Source: Chara braunii (Eukaryota; Plantae; Charophyceae). Taken from it: a stretch of DNA of 64,000 nucleotides. The stretch spans positions 1,805,827 to 1,869,826 of the forward strand of contig BFEA01000013.1 in the NCBI GenBank assembly GCA_003427395.1, in the 5' to 3' direction. The position numbers were made by a program, and so were the translations under genes. The notes below the pieces were generated by a model that saw only the letters and a list, made by a program, of their open reading frames with translations, was not told the DNA's origin and did no database searches. This document shows positions 12,097-60,828 of this stretch, piece by piece; position 1 is the stretch's first letter; each line of letters starts with the position of its first letter.

Positions 12097-12116
12097 TGCC
12101 GCCGTTGCTAGGGATC
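12097..12116 (+). promoter_or_regulatory. Primer-binding site of element A (tRNA-Asp)
   Basis: TGCCGCCGTTGCTAGGGATC matches TGGCGCCGTTGCCGGGGATC (complement of the plant tRNA-Asp 3' end) at 17/20, 2 nt after the LTR end. Confidence 0.85.
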
Positions 12117-16500: not shown

Positions 16501-17113
16501 ACCCTGTCAATCATCTTGGTTAGCTAATACAACCAGCGTGACGACCCCTCGGGAGCCTCCATCATACTGCCTTATGTTTCAGAACCAAGCAGACTAGGTT
16601 CTTTTTTGGTTCTCCTAGGTTCCTTTCCTGAATCAGGCATGATTTTTACTTCAATTATATAGTCTTTTTGCTTTCGATACTTTTAGTCCTGAAGAAAGTC
16701 ATAAACAGTATATCATACAATCACACAAGCAGTCTGATAGAAGGGCGTAGCCTGTAAGGGTATATTGGAAAGGAATAGGTGACGCGTACCTTATGGTTCC
16801 CTGCCTCCAGAGTTCCTCCTGAACTCCGGCAGAGCTCCCGCAATCGCCCTGACCACGTCAAATCTATACAATGATTTTCTGACTTCTTAGCAAGATCAGA
16901 AACATCCTAGTGATCATACATCACTTAAACATGTATAGCTGAAGAGATAGGTTTTAGAGAGGATCAATCAACGATAAGAGTGGAGGAAGACGGAGGAGGT
17001 GTGCACCATCACGAACGCGATGATGTTTCTTCTCCTTCCTAATGCCTCACAATCCTCGTCAGTTTAGTCCTCAGTCAAACAAATAATAATAAAATCAATA
17101 AACACCAATACTG

Positions 17114-17154
<41 letters not shown>

Positions 17155-19216
17155 TAATAATAATAATAAACAATAATTATTATTATTATAAATAAAATAA
17201 TGATAATAATAATAATAATAAAGGTAGCATTTTCTCGCTACCTTCCATAAGGATCAAAGAAAGGACCCTCTTCCTTTCATTTTCTCTTTTCCTCATACAT
17301 TTCCCTCACTCTTTCTCTCTTCACCTACCTCCTTTCTCACTTCTCACTCTTTCTTTTCCCTGCATAATCCTACCTTCTCCTTACTCTGCCGTTTGGTTCT
17401 CACTATTCCCAGTTACTTTCATCCGCTTTCATACTTGTCTGGCCATAGGTCCGACCAAGTTCAAAGGGCCCCTATCTAAGTTGTCATAGGTATGTCCAAG
17501 GCAGATCCTAACTGAGTCATATGTCCCCAGTCTGATGATCTACTTAGTCTTGTCAGAAATGCCAATTGTATCAATGTACGCCAGGCTTGAGCCCGGTACC
17601 GACGAACCCAGTCAATATCAAGTATAAGTAAGGGAACAGTGAGCAAAACATCCATGCATTCTGTTGCCGATGATGCGGAGGTGCTGCTGCAGCGGCTCGT
17701 GCTACGGGGTCAGCAAGTTGCCCGTAAGCGCCAATCAAATATTGTCATTTGTCTGCTGCCTCGGCGTCCGATGGTCAAGTCCGATTTCTTATCGGCCAAT
17801 AATGTAGTCATGGTGATCAGGTGCTCTAATCAGGCGAAGATAGTAGTGAGAGGCTTCGCGCATATAGAGCGCAAGCATGTGACAGATAAATAAAACACAG
17901 ACAACGCATAGTTATATCATATACAAGGCACGGTCAAAGACATATCAGACGGACATCGCACCAGACAAGGCATCGTCTCAGCACGGGAAATAGAACACCG
18001 ACTGCACAGTCATATTACAGGCCTAGCACATAGGAATACCACAAACTCCATACAGGCTCAACACATAGCCATAGCACAACTCATCAACCACAAACACAGA
18101 TCACAGACATAGCTCAGATGTAGATATAGCATAGACACGACCTTAGCACAATCAGACGTAGCAGAGAGATGTAGCCACATCATAAATACTACAATTGCAC
18201 AGTCATAGCACAATCTCAGAACACAGATGCAGCACACTGGCTTGGCACGGTCTCAACACACAGACGCGGAACACAGACCCAGCTCAGACACAGGTCAGAT
18301 GTAAAACACAGACATAGCCTACAGTCCTAGTACAAATGTAGTACCGTGATACACAGATACGGCACAGATGCAGTACAATGGCGCACCGACATGGCAGAGT
18401 CATGCTTTCCTTTACTGTATAGCGAACTATGGCAACACACACACACAGTCATACAGATGCTCCCCCACAGATGCATTGGTGAAAGCCCGACGAAACTGTC
18501 TGACGCAGTCCTGCTTTTCTGTTCACACCATCCGTCGTTTCTATCAATCGAATGGTCTAGTGAGGTGTCTGGATCTCGGCGGTTTGCCGTTGTCTGTATG
18601 TCTGATGGTCTGTCTCTTCTCTCTTTTATCTTCCCTCATTCTCCTCCTCGCTCTCTTTCTCTCTCTTTACAGCAAAGAAAAAATAGCAATAGCAGGATGA
18701 TAATATTCAGACTACACGTTCACATTGAAAGCCAGATCGTACCACAACGTCCAGAAAGCAGCAATGCACCAATATAACACCAATAGAGAATCGTAACACT
18801 GAAAACTCAAGGTTAATGAGAGTTTGCTCTCGCCAATACCATCATATGTATTCTAGGCTCTTCTCCGTACTTGGCACTTGGTGCCCAACGTACTCCCTAC
18901 ACAACTAACATCTGCCTTCTAATTAACAATGCAACTATAAACGTCAGCAACCGACGAAGTACTTAAAAACGTCGACCAATGCACGCCATCGCCAATACCA
19001 GGTATATGCCCTCACCTGTTATTATATACGTCGTATCATTGTGCGCGATCGCCTAGAAATCTCGGCCTCAATGGTCGAGAAGTTCGCTTCACCTCACCAA
19101 GCCAAAAAAATTCTCACTTTTTACTCCAGACTGTCTCCGATACGGCGACAGGCGTTGATACTGTATCATATGCAAAATCATGAGCAAATACCCTTGTAAG
19201 GGTGTTTGCTCTGACA
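13571..19216 (-). mobile_element. Solo LTR B (5.65 kb), antisense, in the leader of element A
   Basis: Minus strand reads TGTCAG...GCGACA; perfect 4-bp TSD ACGA at 13567-13570 and 19217-19220. Confidence 0.93.
15100..16565 (-). repeat. Stem-loop array in LTR B, including six 54-bp tandem units at ~16047-16365
   Basis: Recurrent GGATGAC(C/T)C..CGG(G/A)AG hairpins; tandem unit carries GTACTTC-ACG-GAAGTAC. Confidence 0.8.
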
Positions 19217-19259
19217 ACGAGTCCACCTCTTTATTTACATACTACTTGTACCTGGAGGT

Positions 19260-21690
19260 ATGACATCTAATTGGGGAAAGAGAGTTACTAAGCATATTAC
19301 CGCAAATCGACTCATACGCTCGCAGATACGAATTGGCAAATAGGTTTAACTATTGGGACAAATTACGACGGGTAATCCTCTTTCCAGCCTGATAGTGACA
19401 GAATGCTCTTCATTTAGGGACCTATGGAAAAATGGTAAAAAGGTCAATGGAGGGGGGCCACCGCCTATTACCGTAGCGGAAATTGTTAAGTTACTAGAAA
19501 GGAGAATTATAAAAAGGTCTAACTTGCCAAAAATAGATATCTTCCCGTTCAAAGGAGAAAGAGTATCTCACAAGTTGGAGTTACTTGAATAGATCTTCAA
19601 CCAATTAACTTCAGCGGAGAAATTTGCTCAGCTGTATGAGTATGTATGGTGGGAATGCAAATCGGACGTGGAAGAAGTTGTAAAGAAGGCCAATGATGAT
19701 TGGGCAAAATTTAAGTAAGGCATGCAAAGGAAGTTCAAATTAAAGGACGGTCTGCACACGGTCGAACACCTTTATAACACGAACCGGGGTGATTTCACCA
19801 CGATTGGAGCATTTGCCAATGCCTTTGAAAAGACGACCGAAAGGGTCGCAGGGTTGTCCGAAGAAATGCAGTGCCTCATATTCCTGGGAAAATTCTCTGG
19901 GTATGAGGTAATGGAATTGACTCGAGGAGGAGCTGCGAGAAGGAAAACGACTTGGGAAACCATTAAGAGGAACATCGCGGCAGGGGACTTAGATCAAGAG
20001 TTTCATCACCAGGTCAAAGTAGAACGAAGGAAGAGAAAGGCAGTTGGAACAGTCCAACGAATAGACAATGTGTTAGGAGGAGTATTGAGCAACATGACAA
20101 ACGAGATAAAGGAACTTAGGGAGAGGGTGACACCGACAAAAGTGTTAACAGTGACGCAACCATCAGGGAAGAGGAAGAAGAAAGAAGAAGAAGAAGAAGG
20201 CGAAATCGAAGTAGAAGACCTAGAGGAAGCAGTCAAGTTGACAAAATGTCAAAGGAAAGCTATGAATTTAACCATGAGGGGACAAGGTTCGGGAAAAGGA
20301 CAGGTTTCTCAACAAGCGATAGTCCAGTCTGGTCAAGAGTCATCGACAAGCACGACTCGGTTTGGGCAATGGCCCATGGGACCGCCGATGGGTGCATGGC
20401 CCGGATATTTCTCAATGGGACCATGGCCTACGTAGGGACCATATCCGATGATGCCTCAAAACCAGAATATGGGAGGAGAGTAAGGCTCGGGGCATAACCA
20501 ACAAGCAAATAAGAATCAACCAGGGTTGAGTCGCCAAAGCGGTGAAAACCAGAATCGGTCCCTGGGACAAGGATAGGAACGTGGAAGAGGAAGGAACACA
20601 GGAAGGAATCAAGGACCAGCAGAACGAGGAGTAGGGAATAGAGGGAATGGGGGTCAAGGTGGAAAATGGGGACAGCCCCAAGTGGGTGCCAATCAAGTGG
20701 GACAAGAATACCAGCAAGGGTATGGCCAAGGATACGAACAAAGCTACGACAGAGGGTATGGTAGAGGTAGCGGACAATGAAACGGACAAGGGTACGACAG
20801 AGGATGGATAGATTACAGTGAGCGCATTTGTACCCACTGTGGGATCCGAGGGCACACGGTAAAACGGTGTCACGTCGGGAAGCTAGACGAACGTGACGGA
20901 CTCATAACCTCGAACATAGATGGTGATGTATTCGACAAAAGAGGGAATATGATTAGTCCGGACATTCCGGGCGCCATGAGAGAAGAGGCCCTCCGGGTGG
21001 CCGAACTTGGCCCCAACACTCCGGCAATGTTCTGAATTTGGCAAGAGAAGGAGGACCCTGTTGTGCATGTGGAAGATATAACGGAATTAGAAGAGAAAAT
21101 GAGCAGGATGGAGGTAAAAGAAAACAAGGAGAACATTCCCGTCGTTAAAGAAAACACGGAGGAGGGGGATGTTAACATCAATGTCAGAGAAACGTTTGAT
21201 AGGATCGAGGATCTGGTGGATAAAATGCAAAGATTACATCCTAGGCTTCGCGAAATATGCGAAGAAGTTGGGAGAGCAGCGATTTGGATATCCGAGAATA
21301 TTTACTATGGGACATGAAGGACCGGGAGAAGGACCGAATGAGCCTAACCCAAGAATGTTGAGGGCCAACATGGCTGCAAAGGCTAGCATGGGTCAGAGAA
21401 ACGTAAGGGGCTCGATTCCATACGCTACGCGAAGACCTGGAGGAGGCAATCCTCCAAAGGAGCAAGCTCAGACCTCCCAGCCGACTGGGGAAAAACCACC
21501 AATCACGGTAGAGGGAGATGAGGACGAAGACGATAAGATCAGGGAAAAGAAGAAGTCAAGCGGGCGAAGATTAGGGCCAAGAGAAGAAAAGAAAAAATCA
21601 AGGAAGGGAAATCGAAGAAAGAAGAGACCCCGACCAAGAAACGAAAGTAGCAGACTTCGATCGAAGAAGGAGTCGACCTGGAAGGATTTA
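19260..21690 (+). pseudogene. gag: gag of element A (stops and frameshifts; start approximate)
   Basis: Capsid-like segment (FKGERVS...WAKFK*GMQRKF), Gly/Arg/Gln-rich tract, zinc knuckle CTHCGIRGHTVKRC at 20829-20870. Confidence 0.8.
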
Positions 21691-24600
21691 TGAATAAATT
21701 GTTGGAAGGCCACAATGAATTGTTGAATCTAAGAGAGATTTTTGCCTCAGCCCCACGGCTAAGGGAAATGGTAAAAGTTAGGCTGTCGCGCAAGAGAGTG
21801 ACCATAGTCCGAATAGGAGACCTGATTCCCAAAGAGGCGAACTGGAGCGTTGCGGGAAGTAAGATGGACTGAAAGTTCGTGGGGACGGAGTCCATTGAAG
21901 TTATCATAAAAGGAAAGATGTTTCCAAGAATGGTTGATACGGGGGCATAAATGAACATCATAAACGGAGAAACTGCGGAGAGATTGGGGTTGGAAGTTGA
22001 TGAAAACGATTGCGGATTCCTCAATGGAGCTAGTGGCAAAACCGGGTACACGGGGTTGCTTCTAATGTTGTAATAAGGAGAGGAAGGGTCAAGGTGCGTA
22101 CGTGCTTTTACGTTATGCCCTGTTTGGACATCTCGATTTTGCTAGGCAAATCCTTCTTATGCAGGTCCGAGTCGCTCATTATAAACAAACATGATTGCAC
22201 CATGTTTGTTATCTTGTGTGATCTCGCCAGTGGGAATTTTGAGGTAATCACTTGTAGAAATACCGGACCCCACAGCTCGACGAACCGACTCAATGCGGGA
22301 TCTTACACGTTTGAAGAGTCGGAGAATAGGCGGAAAGAAGTAAAATGGAAGAAAGAAGAAGAATCAGACAATGAAGAAGCGAGTGGACTTGTATGGAGCC
22401 TATCAAGTATTAGTGACGCAACCGAGTTGGTATCGGCCTACACGATGGCGAACCCTGATGCTGTCAGAGCGCTTGCGGAAAGGATCCAGGAAGATCCAGA
22501 AGGAGGGAGAGTCGATCTTGTTTACCGACCTTCTCCTCCTCAGATGATAGGGCCACATATGCCAAATGCCCAAACACCCGGCCAACAATGTTTATGGGTG
22601 GGCTCAAGTAGGGCTCCAAAAGGCGGTACAAAACGGTAGACAAGAAAAGTCATCCGGTCCCAGTGCTGGTAAGTCAGGAAGAAGGTGTGTATTATGATCA
22701 GGAGAGAGAATTGATATGACAGATGAGAGAGTGTACTAAAAATGGGTCATGTCGCATCAATAAGGAAACTAATAAGGATTTGATAATAGGCGAACCCGGT
22801 TTCCTGACAAAGCAAGAAGAGGTTTTGGTAAATAATTTGATACGTAAGAAGCATGGAGCATATGCCTTCAATGATGATCAACACAGACGGTTGGACGTTG
22901 ACAAAATCGAAATGATCCGCATTCATACTGTGCCTCATGAACCGCGGAATGTTCGCGGAGCTAAGTACCCCAATCCTGAGGATCGCCGAAAGGTGCTAGA
23001 GTACCTAGATGAAAAGATTCGCACGAATGTTGCTGGGTATTCTAGCGGACCATATGCTTCTCCTTGGTTCTGCTTTGTAAAACCAAATGGGGTGCTCAGA
23101 TGGGTGCAGAACCTTCAATGGTTGAATTCGGTGACCGTGAGAGACGCTGGGCGATTGCCTAACGCTGATCAATTGTCAGAATCCTGCGCAGGGAGATCGA
23201 TTGTATCCCTTATTGATCTCTACTTCGGGTATGATCGATTTTCAGTCTATCCTGCGGATCGTCCTATAACGGCGATGCACACGCCCAGAGGGTTAGTCCA
23301 TATGAATGTTGTACCCCAAGGGTAGACGAACGTTGTGGCCATGGTGCAGCGCAGTATGATCAGAGTAATGCAGCCAATCAGTCCTCAAATTACCGAGCCA
23401 TATATTGATGATCTTGCTGTCAAGGGACCTATCGAGAAGGACGAATCAGAAGTCGCTCCTTGGATAAGAAGATTCGTGTGGGAGCACGTCCAAGGGTTAA
23501 GATAAGTTCTATCTCTCTTAGAAGAGTATAACCTCATTGCCAGTGGCGTGAACTCAAGGCATTGTGTGAAGGAAGTAACCATTCTGGGGTACGTATGCAA
23601 CGAATACGGTCGACGACCTGATGGTAAAAAGAATAACAAAATCCTGGAATGACCTACTCCCTTCAGGAATGTTGGAGAAGTCCGTAGCTTCCTTGGAACC
23701 TGTGGATTATGGAGGAGGTTCATAGAAAGATTTGCCACCAAGACAGAGCATTGGAGGAAGCTAGTACGAAAGGATCAGGACTGGGAATGGGGTAACCGTC
23801 AAGAAGAAGTGGTAGAGGAATTGAAGACGGAATTCAGAGAATGAGGTTTAGTATTGTGAGTGCCTAATTTTGATGCAACTATGGAGCAACCTTTCATAGT
23901 TGAAACCGATGCTGGGTCAACCGCCTTGGGAGGCGTTTTGATCCAAGCAGACAGTCGAGGAAAGGAAAAACCGCTAAGATTCGAAAACCGGACACTCAAT
24001 TCAACGGAGCGGAATTACTCACAGTTCAAAAGGGAAGCCTTGACAGTCCTGCATTGTCTAAGAATCTTCAGGCACTACCTCTTTGGGAGGAGGTTTATCC
24101 TCAGGATTGACCCAACGGCGCTTATGTATTCCCTCAAGAACTTTTCGCCCTCAGACTCGACCATAGCCAGATGACTTACCTATATCTGGATGTTCGATTT
24201 TCAGCTGGAACGTATCCCAGGAAATAGGAATATGGCCGATGGCATGAGTATAATTGAATGGGGAGATCAAGCAGGGTCAGAAAAGGAGGCACCTCCGGTA
24301 GACGAATTTTTGGGAGAAGGGGAAGATATGCGCACACTCGTCAACTATTAGTTTATGGTCGTTGAAAATAAGGCAATGAGGAGAGGAAATCCGATGTGGC
24401 ATCCGCCGCCTGAGTTTTTGAAGAAACCTGCCTTGATACTTACGCCGATAGTAGAAGAGGACTCTTGGGACTCGGAGAGCGGAATGCGGAATGGATGATG
24501 GAGTTGGCCTTGGCTGAGAATTATAGAATAATGGACGAACCACGAACAGTCGAGGCAGGAGCCCGACAAGCAGACGAACAAGTAACCATGATGGGTAGAA

Positions 24601-27600
24601 TGTACTACTTAACGAATTCCTTCTTACAGGTCCAAGTGAATGATGAAGGAAGTGTGGTGAAAGCTTATAAAATAGTAATTGAGGATGATTACGAATTTGA
24701 TGAGGAGAAGAAGGAGGAATTTGAGCAAGGAGAGATTTTAGAAGAATTCCGAGAAGAGGAGTATGATGGATTATACCTAGAAATGGCGTTACTTCTTTCC
24801 GGGGATAAAAGAGAAAGAGAAGTTAGTGAAAAGACTCTTCGGATGAGAGATCATTATGTAGTAAGAGGTGATCATTTATTCATCAGAGACAAGAGGGGGC
24901 CGCCGAGACGAGTGGTATGCGGGAAGAGTCATCAGATTGATATCATAGTTGCACTTCATGATGGGATAGTAAGGAAACACCGAAGTTTTGCGGCAATCTA
25001 TAAGAAGGCGATGAAACTCTACTATTGGGAAGGGATGTTTGAGATGACTCGTAAGTACTGTGAATTATGTGTACCTTGTCAAGTACGATCGCCTGTCAAA
25101 TACAAGGAGCCTCTACATCCCAGGTACATCAAAGATGTGGGAACGGTTGTCCATTTGGACCTACTGCTATGCCATTGGGACTAGGTGGGTATAATTATAT
25201 ATTTGACGTAAGAGACAACCTTACCGGGTTTGTCGATGGTAGGGCCATTAGGAACAAAATTGGGGTGACACTGATAGAATGCATTAAGGAATACTACCTC
25301 AGATATCCGTTCGTATTGGAATTCACGATGGACAGGGGGTCTGAGTTTACGTATGGGGAAGTGAAAAAACTGTTGAAAGAGCTGGGAGTGATAGGTAACT
25401 ACACGACTCGGACTCACCCTCAGGCAAATGCGCCGGTTAAAAGAGGTCATAGTACCATTACAAACTTGCTAGACAAGTGGACCAATGGGAAGCCAAATCT
25501 CTGGCCGAAATTCCTGAGAACGGTATTCTTCGTGGAGAATATCACTGTCAGGAAGACGACAGGGCATACACCTGCAACTCTCTGGTATGGTCGGCATGCC
25601 ACATTCCCGATAGAAAGTTTCCTAAAGACGTGGCGCAGACAGGACTTGGAGAATGATCTTACACTCGAAGAGTTACTAGAGCTCAGGGCAAGACATATCA
25701 GCGCCACGGAAGAGAGGATTCAAGAAGTTGCCACGAGGGTGGCAGACAGCCGCGGAAGGGACAAAGAAAGGTGGGACAAACTCCCTAGAGTGAGAGTTGA
25801 GCCGTTACAAGTTGGGGATGTTGTATTACTTTATGACTCTTCTTTGGAAAAGCAGTGGTCGCGAAAGTTGGACAAGCGTTAGCTAGGGCCTTTCAGAATC
25901 AGAAAACAGGGACCTATGTTACCGCGCGTTCATTGAACGCGCGTTTCACGTTCCAAAAATGAACGTGGTGAAAGCGCGTTCACTGAACGCGCCTGAACGC
26001 GTTTGACGCGTTCGCGCAGGGAGGTGGGCGGGGGGGGGGGGGCCTTTGGGTAGTGTGGCGAGCGGCGGCGGTGCTTGGGGGGGCTGCGGGCAGTGTGGGT
26101 AGTGGCGGCGGTGCTTGGAGGGGGCCTGTGGGCCAAAGCCCCAAGGAAACAGGAAAAAAAAAAAAAAAAACAGTGTATGTGAATTTGTGTGTTTCTGTGA
26201 GTGTGAACGTGTGTGTGTGTATGTGAAACGTCCTTCTTTTTTTTGGGGGGGGTGGGGGAATCTCCCCCGCTCAGACGGCCAATACAGGCTATCTAAAGGG
26301 TCCTCGCAGCCTTGTCGGCGTTGTCGCGCAGACCCCCCCACCCACCAACGTCAAGGCAGGCAATGAATATGGAGTGGAGCACGAGCTCGCCAAATATATA
26401 CTGTATATTCGAATTCAGGTCTGTGTTTCAGCAGTTATGGGTTGCTCACGTAGGTAGGCGGTAGCTAGTCTGTGCACGTGATTATGAGGGTTTGGTTGCA
26501 CTACTCACCAAATGTGCAAAACTAGAATGAATCTTCTGCAGAACATGGAATAATACGTCGTTATATGTTTTATTTTTTCTACCCATGATGAGTAGAGGCC
26601 CTTAGGGCCATTGCACATATTCCTAAGAAAAGAAAAACGAGAAAAATGAAAAAGAGAAAAAAAAAAAAAAAAAAAAAAAANNNNNNNNNNNNNNNNNNNN
26701 NNNNNNNNNNNNNNNNNNNNNNNNNNNNNNNNNNNNNNNNNNNNNNNNNNNNNNNNNNNNNNNNNNNNNNNNNNNNNNNNNNNNNNNNNAAAAATGAAAA
26801 AGAGAAAAAAAAAAAAAAAAAAAAACAACGAGAAAAGGCAAAACATATAGAGGTGTATTATTCCATGTTCTGCAGAAGATTCATTCTAGTTTTTCACATT
26901 TGGTGAGTAGTGCAGCCAAACCCTCAGAATCACGTGCACAGACTTGCTACGGCCTACCTACGTGAGTAACCCATAACTGCTGAAACACAGACCTGAATTT
27001 AAACATACAGTATATATTCGGCCAGCTCGTGCTCCACTCCATATTCATTGCCTGCCTTGACGTTGGTGGGTGGGTGGGGTCTGCACGACAAGGCTGCGAG
27101 GACCCTTCAGATAGCCTGTATGGGCCGTCTGAGCAGGGGAGATTCCCTTACCCCCCCGTAAAAAAAAAAAGACCTTCAGATAGCCTGATTGGGCCGTGAA
27201 AAAAAAAAAAAAAAGGAGTGCATATGTGTGTGTGTAAATTTTGTGTGTATATGTTTGAGTGGGGGTATTTCATGTATTTTTTTTTTTACTTCGTTTTTTG
27301 AATTTCCATAGTCCTCCACGCGCACGCACCCCCCCGGGGGTCGCGTTCAATTTTTTCGCGCTCCGTCGCGTGCAGCGCGTTTGAACGCGATTGAACGCGG
27401 CCCCGGGGGGTATGAACGCGCGCGTTTGAACGTGCACGCGCGTTCTGCGCGTTCAAGGTTACACAGATAGAGACTCCATGGGGCCTATGAGTTGGAAGAA
27501 ATGGACGGCACTCCAAGAAGAGACTGGATTTCGGGGTCCAAACTGAAGAAATTCAATATTAGAGAAGAGGTGAACCCGAGTCCACAAACGAGACCTGAGT

Positions 27601-27602
27601 AA
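21690..27602 (+). pseudogene. pol: pol of element A (protease, RT, RNase H, integrase), disrupted
   Basis: MVDTGA protease motif (~21930); RT with YASPWFCFVKPNG, IDLYFGY and YIDD (23401); RNase H PFIVETDAG; integrase H..H..C..C, VHLD, DRGSEF, PQANA and C-terminal LGPF...YELEEMDG split by an insertion. Confidence 0.95.
25914..27466. mobile_element. Non-autonomous foldback DNA transposon, probably hAT superfamily
   Basis: Imperfect TIRs CTATGTTACC / GGTTACACAG; 8-bp TSD ACAGGGAC/ATAGAGAC; subterminal TGAACGCG repeats; long internal inverted arms; removal restores the integrase frame. Confidence 0.8.
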
Positions 27603-27605
27603 GCG

Positions 27606-27643
27606 CTGTCTCTTATACACATCTAGATGTGTATAAGAGACAG
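27606..27643. other. Nextera mate-pair junction adapter (assembly artefact) with false duplication of 27466-27605 at 27644-27783
   Basis: Exact CTGTCTCTTATACACATCT+AGATGTGTATAAGAGACAG (back-to-back Tn5 mosaic ends). Confidence 0.98.
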
Positions 27644-27791
27644 GATAGAGACTCCATGGGGCCTATGAGTTGGAAGAAATGGACGGCACTCCAAGAAGAG
27701 ACTGGATTTCGGGGTCCAAACTGAAGAAATTCAATATTAGAGAAGAGGTGAACCCGAGTCCACAAACGAGACCTGAGTAAGCGAGTGTATG

Positions 27792-27834
<43 letters not shown>

Positions 27835-27904
27835 GTATAAGCACAAGTGAAGGATGTTTTGTCATGCTTATGTTGATGATGTGAAGTGTTGCCTTGATGA
27901 TGAT

Positions 27905-27946
27905 GACTAACCCTTGTACCTATCATTGCCCCCTCTCTCTGTGCAG
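27905..27946 (+). promoter_or_regulatory. Branch point, polypyrimidine tract and 3' splice site ahead of the extra ORF
   Basis: GACTAAC ... CCCCCTCTCTCTGTGCAG|G, 44 nt before ATG 27990. Confidence 0.7.
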
Positions 27947-27989
27947 GCGTGACCCTTGAAGAGAAGTGACCATAACCCAGAGAGGAAGG

Positions 27990-30268
27990 ATGACAGGTCC
28001 CTCTGGACCAACCTTGAGAAAGGGAGGGCAGAGGAGGGATCAGAAAGTCTCAACGAGTACGGAGGAACTATCGGTTTACAGATCAGGGGATAACTTGCGT
28101 GTGTTCTTGAGGGATTTCGAGGAGTATGCTTTCATGCGAGAGTAGGATGATAAGATGAAGCTCTCAAAAGTGACTGGAGTAGGGGGATATAAAAAGAAAA
28201 TTGAAGAAGTGGCAGCGGGGTGCTTGAGGTGGAAGACGTGTGTGGTAAGATTGTGGCAACTCATTGGGAGTTTTTCCAGCGACGAGATTGAGGACGATTT
28301 GACGTTTGATGGGACAAACTTGGACGACTTTCTCGACAATTTACAACTATTTGCAGAGAAAGGTGGATGGAGTGATGAGGAAAAGAGGAAGAGATTGATA
28401 GAGAGGATAGAGAAAGATGAAAGTGAAGAAGTGAAAAGGATCGTGGAGGAAGTTTACAGTTGGCAAGGGATACTGGTAAAACTGCAAATGGCATACACCC
28501 AGGTAAGGCAGGACCTGACAGGAAAGGAAAGGCTGCAAGAAAAAGAATTGTGGATTGGGAAGAAGGAAAATGAGTTATTAGAAACGACACAGAAATAAGG
28601 GGAAGAAGAAGAAGTACCTTTGAGGCATCTGAGAAGCAAGCCAAAAACGTTTCCCAAGGATAAGAGCAGAGGAGCAAATCAGGCGGTGGAAAAGAGGAGA
28701 AAGGAAAAAAAGAGACAACAGTAGAGAGAGGAAGAGTCCAAAAGATAAATAAGGCACCAATGGTTAAAAGGGCTAAAGAGAAAAGGTCAGTTGAGGATGA
28801 AAGGGAAGGAGGGGAAGTGAAGAGAAGTGAGAGAGGAGCAAGACCAGAAGAGAGTAAGGAGGTGGAAGCAAAAGAAGTGGAATCAGAAAGGGTGGAAGAG
28901 AGAAAGGTGGAGTATGAAGGTTTATCTCAGCAAAAAATGGACGCAAAAGAGGGGCAAGTAAGCAAAGAAGAAAGAGCTCAGAGGGAGAAAAAAAAGGAAG
29001 AGTGGAGAGATTATGTAATCAAAATGTTGCAAGATGATGATCTGCTTATTAATTAATCTTGGGACGTAAGGTTCGAGAGGATGTTGCTTTCTGAATTGGT
29101 GGTAAGTTCAAAACACTCTACCAACATGCACAAGCTGATGGGACTGCATGAAATGTTGGATGAGAAGTGTACCAGTCTCTTTGAAGAGTATGTTGAGGTT
29201 GCAAGGAGACTGAGGGAGATGGATAGAGGAAAAAACGAGAGAGAAGTTGGAGAGGACTTGAAGGCATTGGGGAAGGGGCTTCAGTCAAAACTCAAAGAGA
29301 ATACTGAGTTTTTCACCCAAGGGTTTTTGGACTATATCCCTGGGCTCCTGAGAGAAATGAGCAGGTTGAGGAAAAAGAAGGAGAAAAGGGATGTCCAGGT
29401 GACAAGTTTGACAAAAAGATTGGAAGAGGTGAGAAAGGAACTGGAGGACTTGAAGAAGGGGAAAGAAAAGTTGTTGAAACAAGTAAGTACTTTGGAGGTG
29501 TCCCTGGCCCAAAAGGGCAAGGAGTTGGAAGATGAAGTGGCCGAGAGGGAGAAAGTGGAAAATAAGGTTGAAAGTTTGTGCTCAGGGATTAGTGTGCAAG
29601 GGGAAGATCTGGAACAAGAGATTACAAAGAGGGAAAAGATGAGTCAGGTATGGGAGAAAACGTGGGAGGTAATACTGAAAAGGATGGAAGAGCTCAAACT
29701 GAGCCACCAAGAGAAAGAGATGGAGACCACGAGAGTGGTGGAATGGAAGGATGAGGAAGGATTTGAGATCAAGATGGCAGAAGGAGAAAGGGAGGCTCCT
29801 CAGTCAAAAGAAGGAGAAGGGAGGAAGGGTGAACAGACTAAGATTGGAAAGGAAGGACCCTCCAGCAAGAGGCCACAAGAAGAGCCAAGGGTTGAAGAGC
29901 CTCCTGCCTCAGAAGAAAAAAAGAGTGAATGTTTAACTTTGCCTCAGCAGAAGAGCATCAAGAGGAATGGACAGTCTGGAATGAAACTCTCAGAAAGAGT
30001 TGGGAGTCAGACAGAGACTTTGACTCGGCCTCCCACAAAGAAGGTCAGATATAACAAAGTCAGAAATGGATGTTTCTTTTGTACAGAGGAAGGACACTTC
30101 CGGTATGATTGTACCATATTGGCCGAATATATTAGGAAAGGGATGGTCAGGTTTGACTCGAGAGGGAGGCTGGTAACCAGCAATGGACAGACAATCCCCA
30201 AGACACCTGAAGGTGGTAAAGTAGAGCTTCATAGGATGTTGGGGCTGACATCCACTTTCTCAGGGTAG
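27990..30268 (+). pseudogene. Extra ORF of element A (~750 codons, several stops, at least one frameshift): Gag-like N-terminus, coiled coil, CCHC zinc knuckle
   Basis: YRSGDNLRVFLRDFEEYA and FDGTNLDDFLDNLQLFAEKGGWSDEEK capsid-like segments; E/K-rich heptads; CFFCTEEGHFRYDC. Confidence 0.75.
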
Positions 30269-31833
30269 AAAAGGGTAGGAATTTATAAGTTAAGGCGCTT
30301 TGATAAGGGACAGGGAAAACGAATGAGTGAATAGAGTACAGTATGGAAAAGAAGGGCAGACTTTCTAGGACTTGGTAGGGGTAGAAACTCAGAAGTGGAT
30401 GGTAGTATAAGGGAAAATGCATAAACATTCAGGAGGTGAGATGAAAGTGAATAGGATGAGTCACAAGTATGACTCGCTGTATCATACTTGTATTTATATA
30501 TACATATAAATGATCCAAAAATGGAGAATGAGCGGGTGACCACGAACACTTTTCACATTTGTGAGTGAATCTTTGTCCATGATTTCGAGTCTTCTTTTGT
30601 GAATGAGTACCTTCCTTCATCTATCACTATTTAGAATCTCTGAGGTCTGGGGATGGTGGTAGAGGAAACGGGCGGGTCAGTGTATGAACGAAAGTCGGCA
30701 AAGGATTGAATGATCTGATGCTGAATTGATTACATATGTATGATTGGAATGTCATACTATGATATGGACAAACTCCCCTCAATGGGTAAAGATTGTTTTG
30801 CAAGTGGCTTTGAATGGGATATCTGTTTTTGGATCGATCAGACAAGCAAAGAGTCAACGACCTTGATTTCAATTCAAATATTTGGTTCTTGTATATATCA
30901 ATGACCCCGAGGTGCATGCCTCACCGAGCTAAGATGAAAGACTTGGAGGGCACAACCCTGAGTGGCAACCTGACGATAACTCAATTGTTTGGAAATCTCA
31001 TTTAATTGGTTTATTTTGAAAGAAGCATCGTTCGTCCATCTCAAGGGTTAACCTGAGGGCATAAAATACCAATCCTATGGTGGAAAATTGACATTGTTGG
31101 GACATAACTCCCAACGTGGGCTGCTGACCTAGCATAACCAAGCAGCGGACTCTTTGACTATGGCCTAGAAGAGAGACTAGAGGGGATGATCACCCCGGTG
31201 AAGGAATCTATTCAGGTAGGAGTCAGAGGGGTTGAGATTAGTCTTGAAATTTGTGAATATATTTTAAAAAGGTAGGCTGAATATCCCATCGTTGCGCAAC
31301 CAACGAGGGTAACCACTGATAAGCAACAACGTGGTAGACCGCAGCTTCGGCCTGATCAGCAGGACTGTGGTGGGTCATGATGGAGACCGCTTGTCCTTCT
31401 GTATTAGGCTTCGGGCAGGACAACAGACAACTTTGGACGGTAATATCAAGAGTTGAGCGCCCAAGGTCTCGGTTAGGACCCGCATTTGAAGGGTTGAGTT
31501 CGCAAGTAGACACCGACCCTGAAAAACAACCAACGAATATTTGCACCAAAGTCTAAGGGTATGGGGAAGAAGGAGGCAGTGCCATACTTGACTATTTCAT
31601 GTACTGTAGTACGGATCAATTATCCCCACTTCAAGTCATTGAATTTATTTTGTAATGTGGGAGACCCAGGTTAAAATCCCGGCAGTAATAATGAAAAGTG
31701 AGGTGACGATGTCAATCCTGAACCACATTTCATTCCAGGATTCAGATTTGACAATTTGCTTGTTGGAAAACATCTTTTGGTTGCATACAGTTTCCCAGGC
31801 GACGGAGACGTCACTTAATAGGGTCTGGGATAC

Positions 31834-32162
31834 CGTCGAGCCAAATACCCTTACAAGGGTATTCGACCGTGATTTTTGCAATTGACAGGGTCGGTTACGC
31901 TAATTACCTTGAGGGAACTAGTCTGAGCTTAGAATTTTGTATGGGCGCGCTCGTCATCGTAGCGCGCGCTGTAATGATTAGGATCGACGTTGAATACCCT
32001 TCGATCGAGAAAAGGTCGAGGGGATTGAGTTGGTTACTGCCATGATACGTAGAGTGTCGGGCTTGCTCGACCACGGATACCCGATGCGTCTGCCTTTACT
32101 TAGTATAGTACCATCATACCTGCCATTTGGGTGTTCTTCCCGAGGCGACCCTCAGAGAGCGG
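31834..32162 (+). repeat. First 329 bp of the 3' LTR of element A
   Basis: CGTCGAGCCAAATACCCTTACAAGGGTATT start after GGGTCTGGGATAC, same junction as at 51404; homologous to the start of the E LTR. Confidence 0.85.
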
Positions 32163-35100
32163 TGTCGAGCGTGGAGGTCTCACACCCCGCTGGAAGCACT
32201 GAACCTCACGGTCGTGTCACACATAATTTATTTTTTTGAAGAACAACAAGTCACCACTCCGACCGTGTGCACCGGATATACCTCTCACGACACCCCACGA
32301 CAGGTCAGGGCGTCGCGAGGTACAACTTACCTCTACCCGAGGGGCTGTCACCACCCTCAGGTAGGCGTATCCCTGTTGAGCTACCAGCCCACATGCGAAG
32401 GCTTTTACATGCCTTTGTAGAGGTTGGTTGGCCGAGGGCGTTTGCTCGATCGCTATAGCATAAAACGGGGTACGAGTGGTAAAACGCCTAGAACTGACCC
32501 GTTAGATATTCAGGTCGAACTCTTAAGAGACGGTCTATTTCCGCTATTGTGTAATGTGTTATTTTCTTGACAAATATCAATCAAACCAAAGAGCGTCCTA
32601 TCTTTCTTAACAGGTTGTGACTTAGATGAATATCATAATAATATAAAAGTTAAGTTGGACATATGATGAATATGAAAGTATTACCGTCGAGAACCCTTCC
32701 CACTTTCACAAGTGTTGTGTGTTCGAGACTCTTCAACAGACCAGGTCGAGTTCAATCCAAAATCACACACATAACAGACCTGCATGGAATAATGTAAAGA
32801 CAGTTCACATGCCATGCACTAACAACGTCAACCATCATCCATTGACCTTGTCCCTCATTTCCCAAACTATGTATGACAACCTTATCTTTCCTGAGACGTA
32901 AGCCCAAACCCCTCACATTTCTTCAAAGGGCCCTTCAGAGTGACTATGACCATTTAGGCAATGACCACAGGTGACAGTTTTACTGACCACAGGGTTTGAC
33001 TTTAAAGGTGGGTATCAAGTCAAAAGGGGAAAAGTCGAATCGGTAACAACTGACCTGTTATCGAAAGATAACAGAAATTTGGGCCCTTTTTTGTATACCT
33101 CTTCCTTGAAATGAGGTAGATAAACAGAGACCTGCACACACACAGGTCAACAAAGATTCAACACCCCCACTCAATTCCCACATATTGATATCTAAGGGTC
33201 GAGCCCTTGGATATGAGTAGTGAGCTCTAGGATCGACATCCCAGGTCTAATCCCTAGTTTTACTCTCACAACCCTACCCTAAGTCGTTTGGCACTCTCTC
33301 CTTTCTCTCAAGGAGTCTCAAGCCTGCATCCTAAGTCATGTTAGGAAAACTCATATTTCCCCTACTCTAAGTCCTTACATTTTCTCTCCTGGAAATAAGC
33401 GCACCGTTTGACGCTTATTGTAGATGAGATATAGCTCATTCATCGTCGTGGGCCTTGTGGCATTCCATCCGAAAGCCATGGACAGTCATGGACCACGCGG
33501 TGATTCTTTTTCTATTAGTATTCTTTTTCCCGCGGTCTTATCTTTTTTTTTTCCTTGCTTCTCTTCTAGATATGTAAAGACCTTGCTTCAACAAGAGCAT
33601 TGTTTCTTCCTTTCTCTTCTATTTGTGTTAACATACTCAAGTAGTAGACGGATTCGGACATGAATCTCTTGCTACCTGATCAATATCAAGCAATTTGTTA
33701 ATCAAACTGACAGTCGAGTAAGTCACACATGAGTATTTGATCCCCTGTTAAGTTCCACTCAATGTACACATATGATCTAATCAGAGTAGCAGGATAGCTC
33801 ACACATGAGCATCCTTCCCTAAACAAATAGTTAAGGCTCCTACAGAAGCACCCTACTACTTGCTTTAGGTATCCTTCTGAAAGATCTGGACATCATCCCC
33901 TTCCCAGAGGTTAATAACGGTCTGCGTGAATAATAAGCGACCCGCACAAGAGCCTCCTACTATCACGTGACAAGGTCCTCTTCATGAGAGCAGTAGGATA
34001 ATCCTAACAAGGGTATCATGTTGCCCTTCCGAAGCCGGCCCACCTGAGACCGGGTTAGTTTGGACAGAAGACGAGTATTTAGGGTATTCCTACAGGAGTA
34101 TCCTTCCCCCTTGTAAGTTAGTATCAGAATCAAGTAGGTAATAGACAGACCCCAATAGATGCCCCTCTACTACTTTCCTTGGGTAATGAGTAGTCCCGCC
34201 ATTAAACAAGTAATAGGATGACTCCTACAGACGCCTCCCTATTACCGGTCTGGTGGTCGGGCTGTCTGAAGGTAAGTAAGCTAGGAAAGAAAGAGTAGCA
34301 ATGTGATTTTCTACTCTTTGCAGGTTGTTAGTCGGCCTTAGACTCAAGCGTGTGAATAGGATGACCCTCCCTGGAACCTCCTACTACACCTTGAATAAGT
34401 ACAAAGACCGAAACTTCTGGAGCCATTAATAAGAAAGGAAGTTAGTACAAAAATCCCCTGAGTTCACTTTTCACAACAAGCAGACCCTAGTTAATCAACT
34501 GGAACGTGGTGAGGTAGCACACACATGAGTATCGCCACCTTCTCATTATGCCAATCGTCCCAGCCTCAAAGAGCAAGTGTCCAACCCATACATGGGTTTT
34601 CTACCACCTTCGGAGACTGGTCCGGTAGGCTAACAGGGCGACCCGCACAAGAGCCTCCCTTTACTATTTCTAAATGTCAGACACCTCTGCCCGTCACGAC
34701 AACACTCGATCCGACAGTTAGTAAGGTAACTCGCACATGAGCACCTAATTTAGTTCATAAGTTAGTGTCAGATACCTCTTTCCGTCACAACGACAGTCGA
34801 TCCAGCAGATGGTAAGGTAACTCACACATGCGTACCTAAGTTAGTTCATAAGTTAGTATTAGACATCTCTGCCCATTACGACGACAGTCAATCCGACAGT
34901 TAGTAAGGTAACTCACACATGAGCATCTAATATAGTTCATAAGTTAGTGTCAGACACCTCTTTCCGTCACGACGACAGTCGATCCGGCAGATGGTAAGGT
35001 AACTCACACATGAGTACCTAAGTTAGTTCATAAGTCAATGTCAGAACCCTCTTCCCATCACGATGACAGCCGATCCGGTAGACAGCAAGGTGACTCACAC

Positions 35101-35686
35101 ATGAGTACCTAATCGTTAACCCTTAGTCAAGTCAGCGCATACGTAAGTAGCACGACGACTCACACATTAGCCTTTATCGCACCACTTTGTTCTTCAAACC
35201 CAAGCAATCTTAGGTTCCTTCCTTCCATCAGGCAGGATTCTACTTCAGTCATATATTCTTGTTACTTTTGATAAACTTAGTCCTGAAGAAGGCAAAAATA
35301 GTATATCATACAATCATACAGGCATTCCAATAGAAGGGCGTAGCCTGCAGGGTTACGGGAAGGGGTTAGGTGACACGTACCTCATGATTCCCTGCCTCCA
35401 GAGTTCCTCCTGAACTCCGGCAGAGCTCTCGCAATCGCCTTGTCATCGATCTCGTATCATACATGCAATAGGACGTCTGGACCTTTATAGGAATATATCA
35501 TTAGACAAGTTATAGTGTTGAAGAGATCGGTTCATGAGATGATCAAACAGGGAAAAAAATGGAGGAGGGTGGAGGAGGTAGGTACCACCACACAGTGATA
35601 ATGTCTCTCTCCTCTCCAACACCCCACACTCTTCCCCTTTTTGGCCCCTGCTTATCTCAGGATGTTTTAATAGTGAAACAACAACC

Positions 35687-35744
<58 letters not shown>

Positions 35745-37203: not shown

Positions 37204-39233
37204 TGTCGGACCAAATACCCTTACAAGGGTATTTGGCCATGCTTTTACATTCGACACGGTGACGGCATCGACTACCATAATGAAGCCAGTCTGGAATGGA
37301 AAGGGTGTGCACGCTTGAGTGTGACGCTCGAAACGAATACCTCGGCCAATGAGGCCGGGGCAAAATCGGTAAGAAAATTTCGATAAGTATGTGCGCGCGT
37401 TATTGTGACGTGCGCTCTAATGGTTAGAATCAGTAATAATACCCTTCGACCGAAGAGGTCGAGGGGTCGATTGGGTTAAGTGTTATGACGGGTAAACCTA
37501 TACAACCTACACCGTGACGGAGGCTTAAGCGTCCGTACGATAGTCAAGTTAAAATTAATATACGCCCCGACCGTACGGGCGGAGCAATTAACAATGAGTG
37601 ATCGTCAGGTTGAGGTAGCACCCTGAAATGCTAAGAGCTTGGCTCAAGCGGTATACCACGAGTAGGACTAAGGGTCTCACCCGAGTTCCCGCATATGGCG
37701 AAGCGTTTGCCTCTTACACGGTGACTTCCTGACTCCGTGGCACGCTTGCCTTTACTAGGTATGGTACCAGCCTACCTGCTACTTGAGTGTTTTCCCCGCT
37801 GTTATGAGTATGCAGGTTTAATCCACTGCCTTATAACGTTTCCGCCGCGTCCCTCAAGGCCACGACTACAGGTAAGTACCGGGCCTACGGGCCTTCAGAG
37901 CAACTATGTGCCCTTGCGGGTCACACACACGCCCAAGCCGACAGGCATGCAGACCGGCATGCGTACGCACACACAGACTTGGAAAACAGACTCAGGCCAC
38001 TAAGTAGGCCGAGCCCTCGATCCTCTGTATGTACCTTAGCGACTCTTTTCCTAACCATAATAGGAGCTAGCTCAGTTGGTTTAGGTGTAGATTGACAAGC
38101 GGGAGACACAGGGATCGAGGTTTACTGTCGCTGAGATTAGCTCCTTTTGAAAAGGGAGCCCTGCTTTTTTTTTTGCCCAGTTTCGAGTGGTCGGGGCTTG
38201 AACCCGCGATCACAGCATTAGGAGTAGTTATAGTTAGGTTGTTTGCCCAACAATTGGCACGTCGGAGGAGTTTGCAGTTGAAAATTTCTTTTGTTTTCTT
38301 TATTTTATTATTATTAGATTCGATTTTTAATTTTAGATTCTTTATATGTATGTATATTTTTATTTCTTTTAATTTTTCTGATCCCGTAGTTACTCTCCAC
38401 AGATTCGCTTTAGTGAATTTGTGTAAGGAAGCCGGGCAGATTCATTCTGCAAAGTCTGCTCGATTCAGAAAACGATGTCGAGGACTTGGTCCGCGCGATT
38501 TGGACTCAATGCTCGTCGGATGATCAGCGAACGCACGGGGAGCGGCGAAGATGGTCGGGTGGTGGTAGCAAGAGGGGAGATGCGCGGAGGGAGAGGAGGA
38601 GGATTGCGAGGAAGAAGGGCGACACGCGGGAGAGTAACGAGAGGAGTAATGGCAGGAGAAGACAGAAGAAGAAGAAGAAGTAGGAGGGAAGGAGGAGGAG
38701 AAGAAGAAGAAGGAGGGAGAAAGGAGAGGCGGAACCGCGGGAGAAGGAAGAGCGGCCGCGATGGGAAACAGCGGGCGAGTAGGAGGTGGTGTGCGGGGAT
38801 CAACTAAGAAGATGTGTGGTAGAAGGTAAGCGCGGGAAGCAGCGAAGATGACGAGCGGGATAGCATAAAGGAGGAAGATGGTCACGCGCAGAGAAAGTAG
38901 TATCGGAAGAAGAAGAAGGAGAAGAAGAAGAAGATGAAGAAGAAGAAGAAGAAAGAGGAGGAGGAGGAAAGAAGTAGAGGGGGAAAACACTTACCTGACC
39001 GTGCGGTCAGATGATTGCGGCTCCGACGACGACGACGACAACAAGCTAACGACGTGCCGCCGCCGCCACCGACGACAACAAGCTAACGACGTGCCGCCGC
39101 CGCCGCCGACGACGATGGCGATGACAAGGGAGCAAGAGAGAGAAAGCGGGTAAGTCTCCTACCCCAAGGCTAGCCGCACGCTACTTGGATCGGAAGACTC
39201 ATTCCGCTTTTGGTCGTCCTATCNNNNNNNNNN

Positions 39234-39328
<95 letters not shown>

Positions 39329-39503
39329 ATCAGTCTCCAACTCGCGCTTCGCCGCACGCTACCTGGATCGATAGAACGAGCAAATCAACAAGTGGTTGTG
39401 TATATTGCCACGTTTCAGCGGAAGATTCATTCCGTTTTTGCTCATCCTATCGATGGAATGTATGTGATCCTATCGATGGAATGAGAGTGATCCTAACGAT
39501 GGA

Positions 39504-39586
<83 letters not shown>

Positions 39587-39978
39587 GAGGCATGGAGACA
39601 CGTGGCATTTGTGTGTGGGGTTGAGTTTGTGAGTGTAGCGCGAGACATACCTGGTGCTGGAAAGCGTGCGACATCGGTCGCCATGTGCTCGTACTTCGGG
39701 AATGATGTTAATGTCATCTTTCGAATTCGTAGTATAAGCTAGATAGGATCCGCCACATGTAGTTTGGTCGCTGAGCGCCAAATAGGATATCAACTTTAGT
39801 TCTTCGTTGATGATGACGGGAATATTTCAGCATTGTCAATTATGAACTCTTTGTGTGTTCTTATTTGGTGGATCTCGTGATGCAATTATGCTGTTGGTTC
39901 AAGGTAAAGACTATCTGGACTCGTATGTATGATGCTGTTTGATTACTGAAAATCGTTAATTTTTTTTTTGCATATTTA

Positions 39979-40056
<78 letters not shown>

Positions 40057-42733: not shown

Positions 42734-42799
<66 letters not shown>

Positions 42800-43206
42800 T
42801 GTGTCATTATTTATTTTATTATTACCGATTGTTATCGTTTGATTATTTCTACTACCTGTGTTAGTTACTATAACTGACATGCGACATCAATACAGGGTCA
42901 CAGATGAAGAGAAAACATGGGGCATTGGAGAGGGAGGTGACGCTATCCTTTTGCGATAAGTGCCCACCTCCTTCACCCTTCTCCATGCTTAACTTTGTAT
43001 GGTCCTCTCATATACCTGCCTCCTCAAATTTATTCAATTGAGGGTTTGATCACCGTTGAGTTAACCCTGACCTCGACTAGCTCGAAGGGCCAGCAATCGA
43101 TTGCATGAATTATACATGATCGATGACAGGGCGATTGCGGGAGCTCTGCCGGAGTTCAGGCGGAACTCTGGAGGCAGGAAATAGTGAGGTATGGGTGCTC
43201 TAACAT

Positions 43207-43240
43207 AAAACCTAAACCCTAAACCCTAAACCCTAAACCT
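43207..43240 (+). repeat. Short (CCCTAAA)n telomere-type / telo-box tract (also ~57757-57790)
   Basis: AAACCTAAACCCTAAACCCTAAACCCTAAACC just after the predicted splice donor. Confidence 0.8.
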
Positions 43241-43659
43241 ATAACCTCAATAATACTAATAAATAAGACCACTTCGGGTCAAGGGTCCCTCAGGGCTAAA
43301 CCCGAGGGGCAGAAAGACAAACAGTAATGCTTGAATAAGGGAGGATAAGTATGATCTGTCTTGGTGAAATGACTGGCCAAATGTAACTGATTGCTTCTAG
43401 ATACAACGATCTTGCTGTGACGACATTTCTCGAAAATATGGATGCGAGGGATCAACTTCTCACGATCGTTCTCTGTACATACCGCCTAAACGATGATGGG
43501 TACCCTTAATTTGAGCTTGCTATGATCAACTGTCATGGATTACACCGGTCATTTCTCATTATGCATCTGATCCAGCGTTAATTCTTAAAACTAACAACGA
43601 TTCAGGGCTCGAATGGTATCAAAGGCAATAACTTGGTCCGTCGATAAGGCTTGTGTGGG

Positions 43660-46850: not shown

Positions 46851-46870
46851 TGACGCCGTTGTCGGGGATC
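46851..46870 (+). promoter_or_regulatory. Primer-binding site of element E (tRNA-Asp)
   Basis: TGACGCCGTTGTCGGGGATC, 18/20 match to the complement of the tRNA-Asp 3' end. Confidence 0.9.

Positions 46871-53469: not shown

Positions 53470-53552
<83 letters not shown>

Positions 53553-53821: not shown

Positions 53822-53863
<42 letters not shown>

Positions 53864-54110: not shown

Positions 54111-54158
<48 letters not shown>

Positions 54159-57282: not shown

Positions 57283-57348
<66 letters not shown>

Positions 57349-60772: not shown

Positions 60773-60828
<56 letters not shown>

Follow-up and report, generated by a model that had tools for sequence, protein, structure and literature searches.

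The 64-kb stretch of Chara braunii DNA analyzed here (contig BFEA01000013.1, positions 1,805,827 to 1,869,826 of the forward strand; hereafter the window) is marked as eukaryotic repeat DNA by its composition, its microsatellites, its N gaps and its stop-riddled frames. The subject of this report is a 2.3-kb reading frame (27947-30268) that lies behind the pol gene of one of its long terminal repeat (LTR) retrotransposons, element A, and to which we refer as open reading frame 3 (ORF3). Element A exhibits the pol order of Ty3/gypsy elements (Metaviridae): protease and reverse transcriptase (RT) pieces of Chara braunii gene models match 21864-23472 in tblastn searches, and a Pfam scan places RT_RNaseH at 23860-24171 (E 4.7e-24), Integrase_H2C2 within 24414-25181 (E 1.4e-10) and a weak match to the integrase core rve within 25064-25879. 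The pol frame ends with a stop at 27780, after a 1.5-kb foldback-like insertion. The explanation that we favor, with moderate confidence, is that ORF3 represents a decayed copy of a gag-derived third gene of a Chara braunii Ty3/gypsy family, expressed from a spliced subgenomic RNA, and that its product would bind RNA, associate with itself and serve the assembly of Gag as a partner or regulator.

ORF3 occupies two frames in the window (frame 0, 27948-28724; frame 2, 28664-30268) and is interrupted by four in-frame stops (27957, 28143, 28596, 29054) as well as by a single frameshift within an A-rich run. Its relatives read through at each of these positions. At 27972-27974, where most relatives keep a methionine codon, the window does not read ATG, and the next ATG is found at 27990. 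The encoded protein consists of a basic N-terminus, two tandem modules resembling the N-terminal domain (NTD) of retrotransposon capsids, a Lys/Glu-rich linker, a helical and heptad-rich region, a single CCHC zinc knuckle and a Gag-like tail (Table 1). The knuckle, already recognized in an earlier reading made from the letters alone (hereafter the sequence-only reading), follows the spacing C-X2-C-X4-H-X4-C; it scores 17.8 bits against Pfam zf-CCHC (PF00098), below the cut-off of 20.8, and is intact in the gene model P0001 and broken in P0006 and in element E, a second and deleted retrotransposon of the window. The long coiled coil claimed by the same reading stands in part: a hydrophobic excess of at least 0.55 at heptad positions a and d extends over 46 consecutive 28-residue windows, and Pfam coiled-coil families give weak, sub-threshold matches, so that a coiled coil is suggested by the heptad pattern but is not formally significant. 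Between 30 and 39% of the ORF3 residues are E, K or R. No membrane segment is present in ORF3, the highest Kyte-Doolittle mean over 19 residues being 0.94. An envelope-like protein, which the sequence-only reading had likewise set aside, was rejected on this ground.

Table 1. Features of ORF3 and its surroundings in elements A and E (window coordinates; NTD, N-terminal domain; CA, capsid; UTR, untranslated region).
Feature	Position	Strand	Remark
Candidate 5' splice donor in the leader of A, GGTAAGT	12158-12164	+	About 230 nt before ATG 12388 of a small upstream ORF
True Gag of element A	19440-21035	+	Single frame, two stops in CA part
Gag CA-NTD	about 19518-19739	+	Within true Gag
Gag knuckle CTHCGIRGHTVKRC and tail	20781-21035	+	Tail as quoted in the sequence-only reading
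pol C-terminal end (integrase tail ...GAYELEEMDGTPRRDWISGSKLKKF...)	27466-27780	+	Present twice, around adapter
Candidate 3' splice site: GACTAAC from 27905, CTAAC branch-point consensus 27907-27911, pyrimidine tract, CAG/G	27905-27946	+	Exon start 27947
ORF3 start: short leader peptide and basic N-terminus (GPSGPTLRKGGQRRDQ)	27947-28061	+	In-frame stop 27957
ORF3 module 1, capsid-NTD-like repeat	28062-28280	+	In-frame stop 28143
ORF3 module 2, capsid-NTD-like repeat (FDGTNLDDFLDNL...W...W)	28290-28523	+	Profile match to the family's Gag NTD
ORF3 Lys/Glu-rich linker, poorly conserved	28524-29002	+	Stop 28596; frameshift near 28700-28715
ORF3 conserved helical segment (WRDYVIKMLQDDD...), then heptad-rich helix	29003-29800	+	Stop 29054
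ORF3 CCHC zinc knuckle, CFFCTEEGHFRYDC	30071-30112	+	Motif read directly
ORF3 post-knuckle tail, collinear with true Gag tail	30113-30268	+	Stop TAG 30266-30268
3' UTR of A	30269-31834	+	1.57 kb; counterpart in E (49993-51446) 81% identical
Homologous leader position of E, GGTAAGT	46912-46918	+	Same heptamer as A
ORF3 remnant in deleted element E, last 59 codons	49675-49851	+	52% identity, knuckle broken, then shared 3' UTR

Sequence searches yielded 47 Chara braunii proteins, 24 of which combine gag/pol pieces with ORF3 pieces. In each of these 24 gene models, ORF3 is a sense frame between pol and the 3' LTR and the last piece, following the others in canonical order; five of them map collinearly on element A. 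The matches are all from Chara braunii and lie on different scaffolds (15/15 for the C-terminal part of ORF3, 10/10 for Gag and 10/10 for those hits of the exhaustive search that were looked up). None of these "hypothetical proteins" is identical to the window; they represent further copies of this element family. An exhaustive HMMER search of 1.84 billion representative sequences (E<=0.001) returned 30 proteins, 19 of them named Chara braunii and 11 without a name, and detected no ORF3 homologue outside this species among the named hits. Of the 19 named proteins, nine had already appeared among the hits to the C-terminal part of ORF3 and to Gag, and ten were looked up individually. The most distant hits, P0046 and P0047 (24-25% identity), still carry the module pair behind the integrase, and the diverged subfamilies (24-48% identity) retain ORF3 in this place. 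A metagenome scan with P0001 revealed no relative, and a word-indexed search with the N-terminal part of ORF3 among proteins of similar length gave P0016 as its sole hit. Many of the gene models (P0002, P0006, P0007, P0012-P0015, P0017, P0026-P0034 and others) are chimeric: gag, pol and ORF3 pieces stitched together by predicted introns and annotated as "hypothetical proteins".

A 3' gene that looks like gag, in surroundings that also hold other insertions and an assembly artefact, might in principle belong to a different element, inserted behind pol, of which it would be the gag. We consider this extremely improbable, and the candidate was rejected on the invariably terminal position of ORF3 in the gene models. 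No LTR or primer-binding site is present in the 166 nt between the pol stop and 27947, neither protease nor RT follows ORF3 in any of the 24 models, and A and E have the 3' UTR and the LTR start behind ORF3 in common. The sequence-only reading had cited the shared remnant and 3' UTR against a nested element, and in this respect it was right.

The conservation of ORF3 is uneven. Its structured parts show median identities of 60-69% across copies (69% for the helical segment and 64% for the heptad helix), compared with 38% for the Lys/Glu linker; for the closest copies, Gag capsid (CA) and protease are 76-81% and 77-79% identical, respectively. Over the 58 codons common to A and E, the synonymous (dS) and nonsynonymous (dN) divergences amount to 0.87 and 0.34, a dN/dS ratio of 0.39 (Fisher p 0.006-0.018) that is derived from a short comparison in which one partner is a dead remnant. 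These values are signs of constraint on the ORF3 sequence. One could still regard ORF3 as a neutral relic, i.e., as charged low-complexity sequence that is open by chance and has been stitched into gene models by an annotation pipeline, given that the window copy is broken, rich in charged residues, devoid of a Pfam family and very weakly expressed. However, subfamilies at 24-48% identity keep both modules and their conserved positions (FDG.N, W, W) over 150-190 residues, the pattern of conservation is that of a folded protein, and the dN/dS ratio is 0.39. We therefore judge this explanation to be very improbable.

Relationship of ORF3 to Gag

Sequence profiles were compared by hhalign, and the resulting scores were judged against column shuffles. 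Module 2 aligns with the N-terminal region of Gag CA over 64 collinear columns (E 1.7e-4; score 25.7 versus 9.9+-2.1 for the shuffles, equalled by 0 of 200); larger alignments give the same picture (E 1.9e-4; 0/150 shuffles), and the same Gag region is found when the whole Gag serves as the target. Module 1 matches module 2 (E 5.6e-6; 0/150) and, when the larger alignments are used, the Gag NTD as well (E 0.0047; 0/150). At the other end of the protein, the knuckle and tail of ORF3, taken together, match those of Gag (E 6e-5; 26.6 versus 10.0+-2.3; 0/200), and the tail alone finds the Gag tail (E 0.0041; 16.7 versus 8.9+-2.2; 1/200). The matches to Gag are collinear with it. Hence, by profile comparison, module 2 and the knuckle plus tail are statistically similar to the family's own Gag, and the two capsid-like segments and the tail resemblance noticed by the sequence-only reading hold up against shuffle controls. 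The ORF3 helical segment did not match the start of the Gag CA C-terminal domain significantly (E 0.28), and BLASTP of the C-terminal part of ORF3 against the Gag knuckle region alone gave a weak hit (E 0.026). The true-Gag relatives themselves match Retrotrans_gag weakly (E 2e-4 to 0.07; 15-22 bits against a cut-off of 24.1, all below it).

Structure modeling points in the same general direction. Two AlphaFold models of the ORF3 modules are all-helical and of low confidence (pLDDT 51.0 and 57.4). When they were compared with 48,161 chains by VIA-align, the capsid domain of rat Arc ranked first for both (Z 6.3, rmsd 3.5, 88 aligned; Z 5.4, rmsd 3.1, 73 aligned), and the best module matches lie over the Arc N-lobe. 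For model 2, capsid entries of Arc and dArc1 account for five of the top 11 chains, and just five chains reach a Z of 5; for model 1, the remaining top rows are single long helices. Neighbours in the protein atlas carry the families Retrotrans_gag, Ty3_capsid, DUF4939 and DUF7041, which we treat as leads only; the TM values range from 0.32 to 0.51 for module 1 against Retrotrans_gag and Ty3_capsid neighbours, and from 0.66 to 0.76 for module 2 against Retrotrans_gag clusters. A sequence search of the PDB with the A2 profile produced nothing meaningful (E 0.21 and 3.4). A capsid N-lobe fold of the ORF3 modules is thus suggested by the models, and Arc and dArc1 (PDB entries 7r24, 7r1z, 4x3h, 6s7x and 6tap) would be their nearest structural counterparts. 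In contrast to ORF3, which resides inside an element and seemingly possesses two N-lobe-like modules, Arc is a host gene product with an N- and a C-lobe.

Taken from these sequence profiles, ORF3 is likely to be an old offshoot of gag. It may have arisen through duplication of gag or through capture of a related gag, followed in either case by an internal duplication of the NTD module. The sequence-only reading had spoken of a duplicated Gag; the Gag-like character of ORF3 stands, but duplication of the element's own gag is not distinguishable from the capture of a foreign one. Capture from a distantly related retroelement, for instance by template switching between co-packaged RNAs, would leave the present identity of ORF3 unchanged, and we hold it to be possible, although rather unlikely. 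The approximately 20% identity between module 2 and the family's Gag NTD is a distance equally expected for a foreign gag and for an old duplicate, and the linker and the long heptad region are without a counterpart in the family's Gag. Yet the exhaustive search uncovered no ORF3-like donor outside Chara braunii among its named hits, and the post-knuckle tail runs collinearly with that of the family's Gag.

Splice signals, transcripts and points against the reading

ORF3 is preceded by a complete candidate 3' splice site, the branch point and acceptor of which had been noticed in the sequence-only reading and proved to be present as claimed. This site is situated 25 nt before the conserved ORF3 start. 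Acceptors were scored by the following criteria, set after the site had been seen: CAG/G, at least 70% pyrimidines in the preceding 20 nt, and CTRAY 12-45 nt upstream. Such a configuration occurs once on the plus strand of the window, at ORF3, and three times on the minus strand; the ORF3 acceptor is accordingly more than chance, with the reservation that these criteria are post hoc. The tblastn matches of the gene models P0006 and P0014 begin at 27945, and annotated models of other copies open the ORF3 exon at the same AG, these models being predictions only.

A candidate 5' splice donor, GGTAAGT, occurs in the leader of A and at the homologous place in the leader of E, again as the sequence-only reading had stated. 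The 119 nt preceding the donor of A contain no ATG, and the heptamer lies in a block of 81.6% conservation between the two elements, which extends about 28 nt beyond it. The heptamer by itself is not rare in the window (11 occurrences on the plus strand and seven on the minus strand). A leader donor combined with an acceptor before a 3' gene corresponds to the arrangement of retroviruses, which is present here in the form of sequence signals. Joining of the leader donor to the acceptor at 27947 would generate a subgenomic ORF3 message, and ORF3 was probably read from such a spliced RNA.

For an assessment of transcripts, three raw oligo-dT RNA runs carrying the same species label were mapped on positions 12000-30500 at 85% likeness (6-13% of each run). 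The 3' half of ORF3 is covered at 0.45, 1.21 and 2.32x in the three runs, almost solely by reads with the first mate on the minus strand (versus 0). This orientation fits sense transcripts in the usual stranded protocol, but 3' bias alone would give the same result. Eight joints were listed, as were 18 of 372 loose read ends.

A considerable number of observations weigh against the favored explanation. The window copy of ORF3 is unable to make a protein; that its frame would be broken had been implied by the "repaired ORF" of which the sequence-only reading spoke. No Pfam gag family (Retrotrans_gag PF03732 or Ty3_capsid PF19259) was found for ORF3 pieces or their relatives, even at E values up to 5, and with the first, smaller alignments module 1 matched the Gag NTD at chance level (49 of 200 shuffles reached the score). 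Confidence in both structure models is low, Foldseek against the PDB gave nothing at E<=0.001 with either of them, and the Arc and dArc1 matches (Z 4.8-6.3) lie below 8 and are middling for helical models, which is why we word the N-lobe fold as a suggestion. The shortness of the dN/dS comparison, with its dead partner, belongs here as well. With regard to expression, read depth reaches 0-2.3x over ORF3 and 0-1.0x in the gag-pol bins, the slightly higher cover of ORF3 is explicable by its 3' position alone in oligo-dT libraries, none of the eight joints listed connects 12158 with 27947 or touches either site, and the gene models are predictions whose donors vary and never coincide with the leader donor. 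The subgenomic spliced mRNA of the sequence-only reading therefore stands as far as the sequence signals and the exon starts of the gene models are concerned; a junction read did not appear among the joints listed.

The last two points would also suit an expression of ORF3 without the splice from the leader to 27947. The maize element Grande has an extra ORF with a promoter of its own, and ORF3 might be served in this way, by reinitiation or internal entry, or by a donor inside gag or pol that fuses Gag or Pol peptides to it. The gene models indeed splice ORF3 to donors inside gag, RT or integrase, and the spliced protein of the Caenorhabditis elegans element Cer1 has N-terminal peptides in common with GAG, according to the part of the publication cited here (PMC3315495). 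We nevertheless regard these routes as improbable. The conserved start of ORF3 is immediately preceded by a complete 3' splice site, pol ends 166 nt upstream in a different frame with stops in between, and the donors chosen in the gene models are inconsistent among copies, as ab initio prediction would lead one to expect.

Other features of elements A and E

About 300 nt upstream of ORF3, two exact 19-mers of the Nextera mate-pair junction adapter stand head to head (27606-27643; 0 expected by chance), and 140 bp of the pol end are duplicated on their two sides (27466-27605 = 27644-27785). Adapter reads in the RNA data pile up or begin exactly at these positions in 3/3 runs. This is an assembly artefact; translation of the adapter region yields the peptide "...SYTHLDVYKRQ". 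The artefact was considered as the source of ORF3 and rejected, given that it duplicates just 140 bp of the pol end 300 nt upstream. The foldback-like insertion (25930-27465) interrupts the C-terminus of the integrase. Its arms (26233-26580 and 26831-27171) are inverted, 89.7% alike and surround an N gap, and it also contains a palindromic GC-rich stretch (27320-27460). RNA depth in the mapped region peaks in this insertion (17-42x, both directions), which is presumably present in many genomic copies.

Between the primer-binding site and gag, element A contains a small Arg/Gly-rich ORF (12388-12880), with a counterpart in E at 47289-47549; both are also represented in the N-terminus of the gene model P0026 (74% and 43% identity). 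The element family may thus have a 5' additional ORF, too. A gap of about 6.5 kb (12900-19350) separates this ORF from gag. It harbors a 54-bp tandem array (16034-16363), and parts of it (13597-17165) are 75-82% like the start of the 3' LTR region of A (32189-35744), from which we conclude that an LTR fragment from a related family has probably been inserted here. Just upstream of gag, a hot spot of RNA reads in both directions (18170-19403) attains as much as 35x in run X2. These reads show fixed differences relative to the window, which points to a repeat family that is expressed.

The 5' LTR of element A ends at ~12099 and its 3' LTR starts at ~31834; no match between A's own two LTRs was obtained, and the start of its 3' LTR aligns with both LTR starts of E. 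The repeats of E extend over 37204-46852 and 51404-61396. These LTRs appear unusually large (about 9.6-10 kb, 90-98% identical, both beginning TGTCGGACCAAATACCC) and contain 161-bp tandem arrays (44161-45198 and 58376-59730). Element E seems to be inserted in the 3' LTR of element A.

Counterparts and possible role of ORF3

Plant Ty3/gypsy elements such as Athila and barley Bagy-2 carry sense additional ORFs between pol and the 3' LTR, known as "env-like" aORF-3S, and that of Bagy-2 is expressed from a spliced RNA, as outlined in the consulted part of a review on additional ORFs (PMC7264820). ORF3 resembles them in position, orientation, presence in most copies of the family and streptophyte lineage. 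As far as the cited part of that review describes them, they are env-like by virtue of transmembrane segments, whereas ORF3 lacks such a segment and possesses capsid-like modules and a CCHC knuckle instead; the words "zinc" and "CCHC" are absent from PMC7264820. More generally, the third ORFs of LTR elements are typically read from spliced messages, according to an excerpt of PMC5408684. Closest in this regard is Cer1, in which a spliced 2.4-kb mRNA leads to a novel non-Env protein of ~60 kDa (PMC3315495, in the portion cited here). Like ORF3 as proposed here, this is a non-envelope extra protein of a Gypsy/Ty3 element with a spliced message and consensus splice sites conserved among related elements; the same portion of the source, however, does not present it as the product of an independent gene derived from gag that has capsid-like modules and a knuckle of its own. 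Our literature search found no paper dealing with this retrotransposon of Chara, nor with any ORF behind pol that derives from gag, with Steinbauerova et al. 2011 and the Chara genome paper lying outside its coverage.

We suggest that ORF3 belongs to the known additional ORFs as a lineage-restricted, Gag-derived 3' accessory gene, whose function would follow from its architecture. The two capsid-N-lobe-like modules could contact Gag, the heptad region would promote oligomerization or self-association, the knuckle would bind nucleic acid and the basic stretches could bind RNA, with an effect on particle assembly or on copy number as the possible outcome. We favor an accessory protein that would take part in the assembly of Gag with RNA, or adjust it, because modules, heptad helix, knuckle and basic stretches are combined in one protein. 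The sequence-only reading had put ORF3 forward as a candidate reader of the hairpin arrays or a regulator of capsid assembly; both roles are conjectural, and no evidence for either emerged. The ORF1 proteins of non-LTR retrotransposons also contain a coiled coil and CCHC knuckles; by analogy, ORF3 may work like them, through coiled-coil self-association and nucleic-acid binding by the knuckle, while no homology is claimed with these proteins of another element class. The yeast element Ty1 encodes a Gag-derived copy-number-control factor, p22/p18, the p22 form of which comes from the gag ORF itself and lacks the N-terminal part of Gag. The analogy with ORF3 would lie in a second element-encoded protein of Gag descent that could interfere with assembly or tune it; ORF3 differs in having a gene of its own, which is rearranged and located behind pol.

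Plant gypsy elements commonly possess extra ORFs behind pol, and most of these are termed "env-like" or lack a known origin and function. In the present case, the likely origin can be named, gag, and the architecture suggests activities, namely RNA binding, self-association and contact with the capsid. The setting is a lineage near the origin of land plants, with a very large genome that consists mostly of such elements. Annotators of Chara braunii also have grounds here for masking dozens of "hypothetical protein" models that are chimeric.

If ORF3 tunes or joins the assembly of Gag, it would show an element evolving its own accessory or copy-number-control factor through gene duplication. 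A bolder version of this idea, to which we assign a low probability, is a two-Gag retrotransposon, in which a rearranged paralogue (two capsid N-lobes, a coiled coil and a knuckle) with its own spliced message would either build a two-component particle with Gag or act as a self-encoded brake on assembly. Were this true, the second Gag would be the equivalent of yeast Ty1 p22 in the form of a stand-alone gene, retained while a whole charophyte element lineage diversified.

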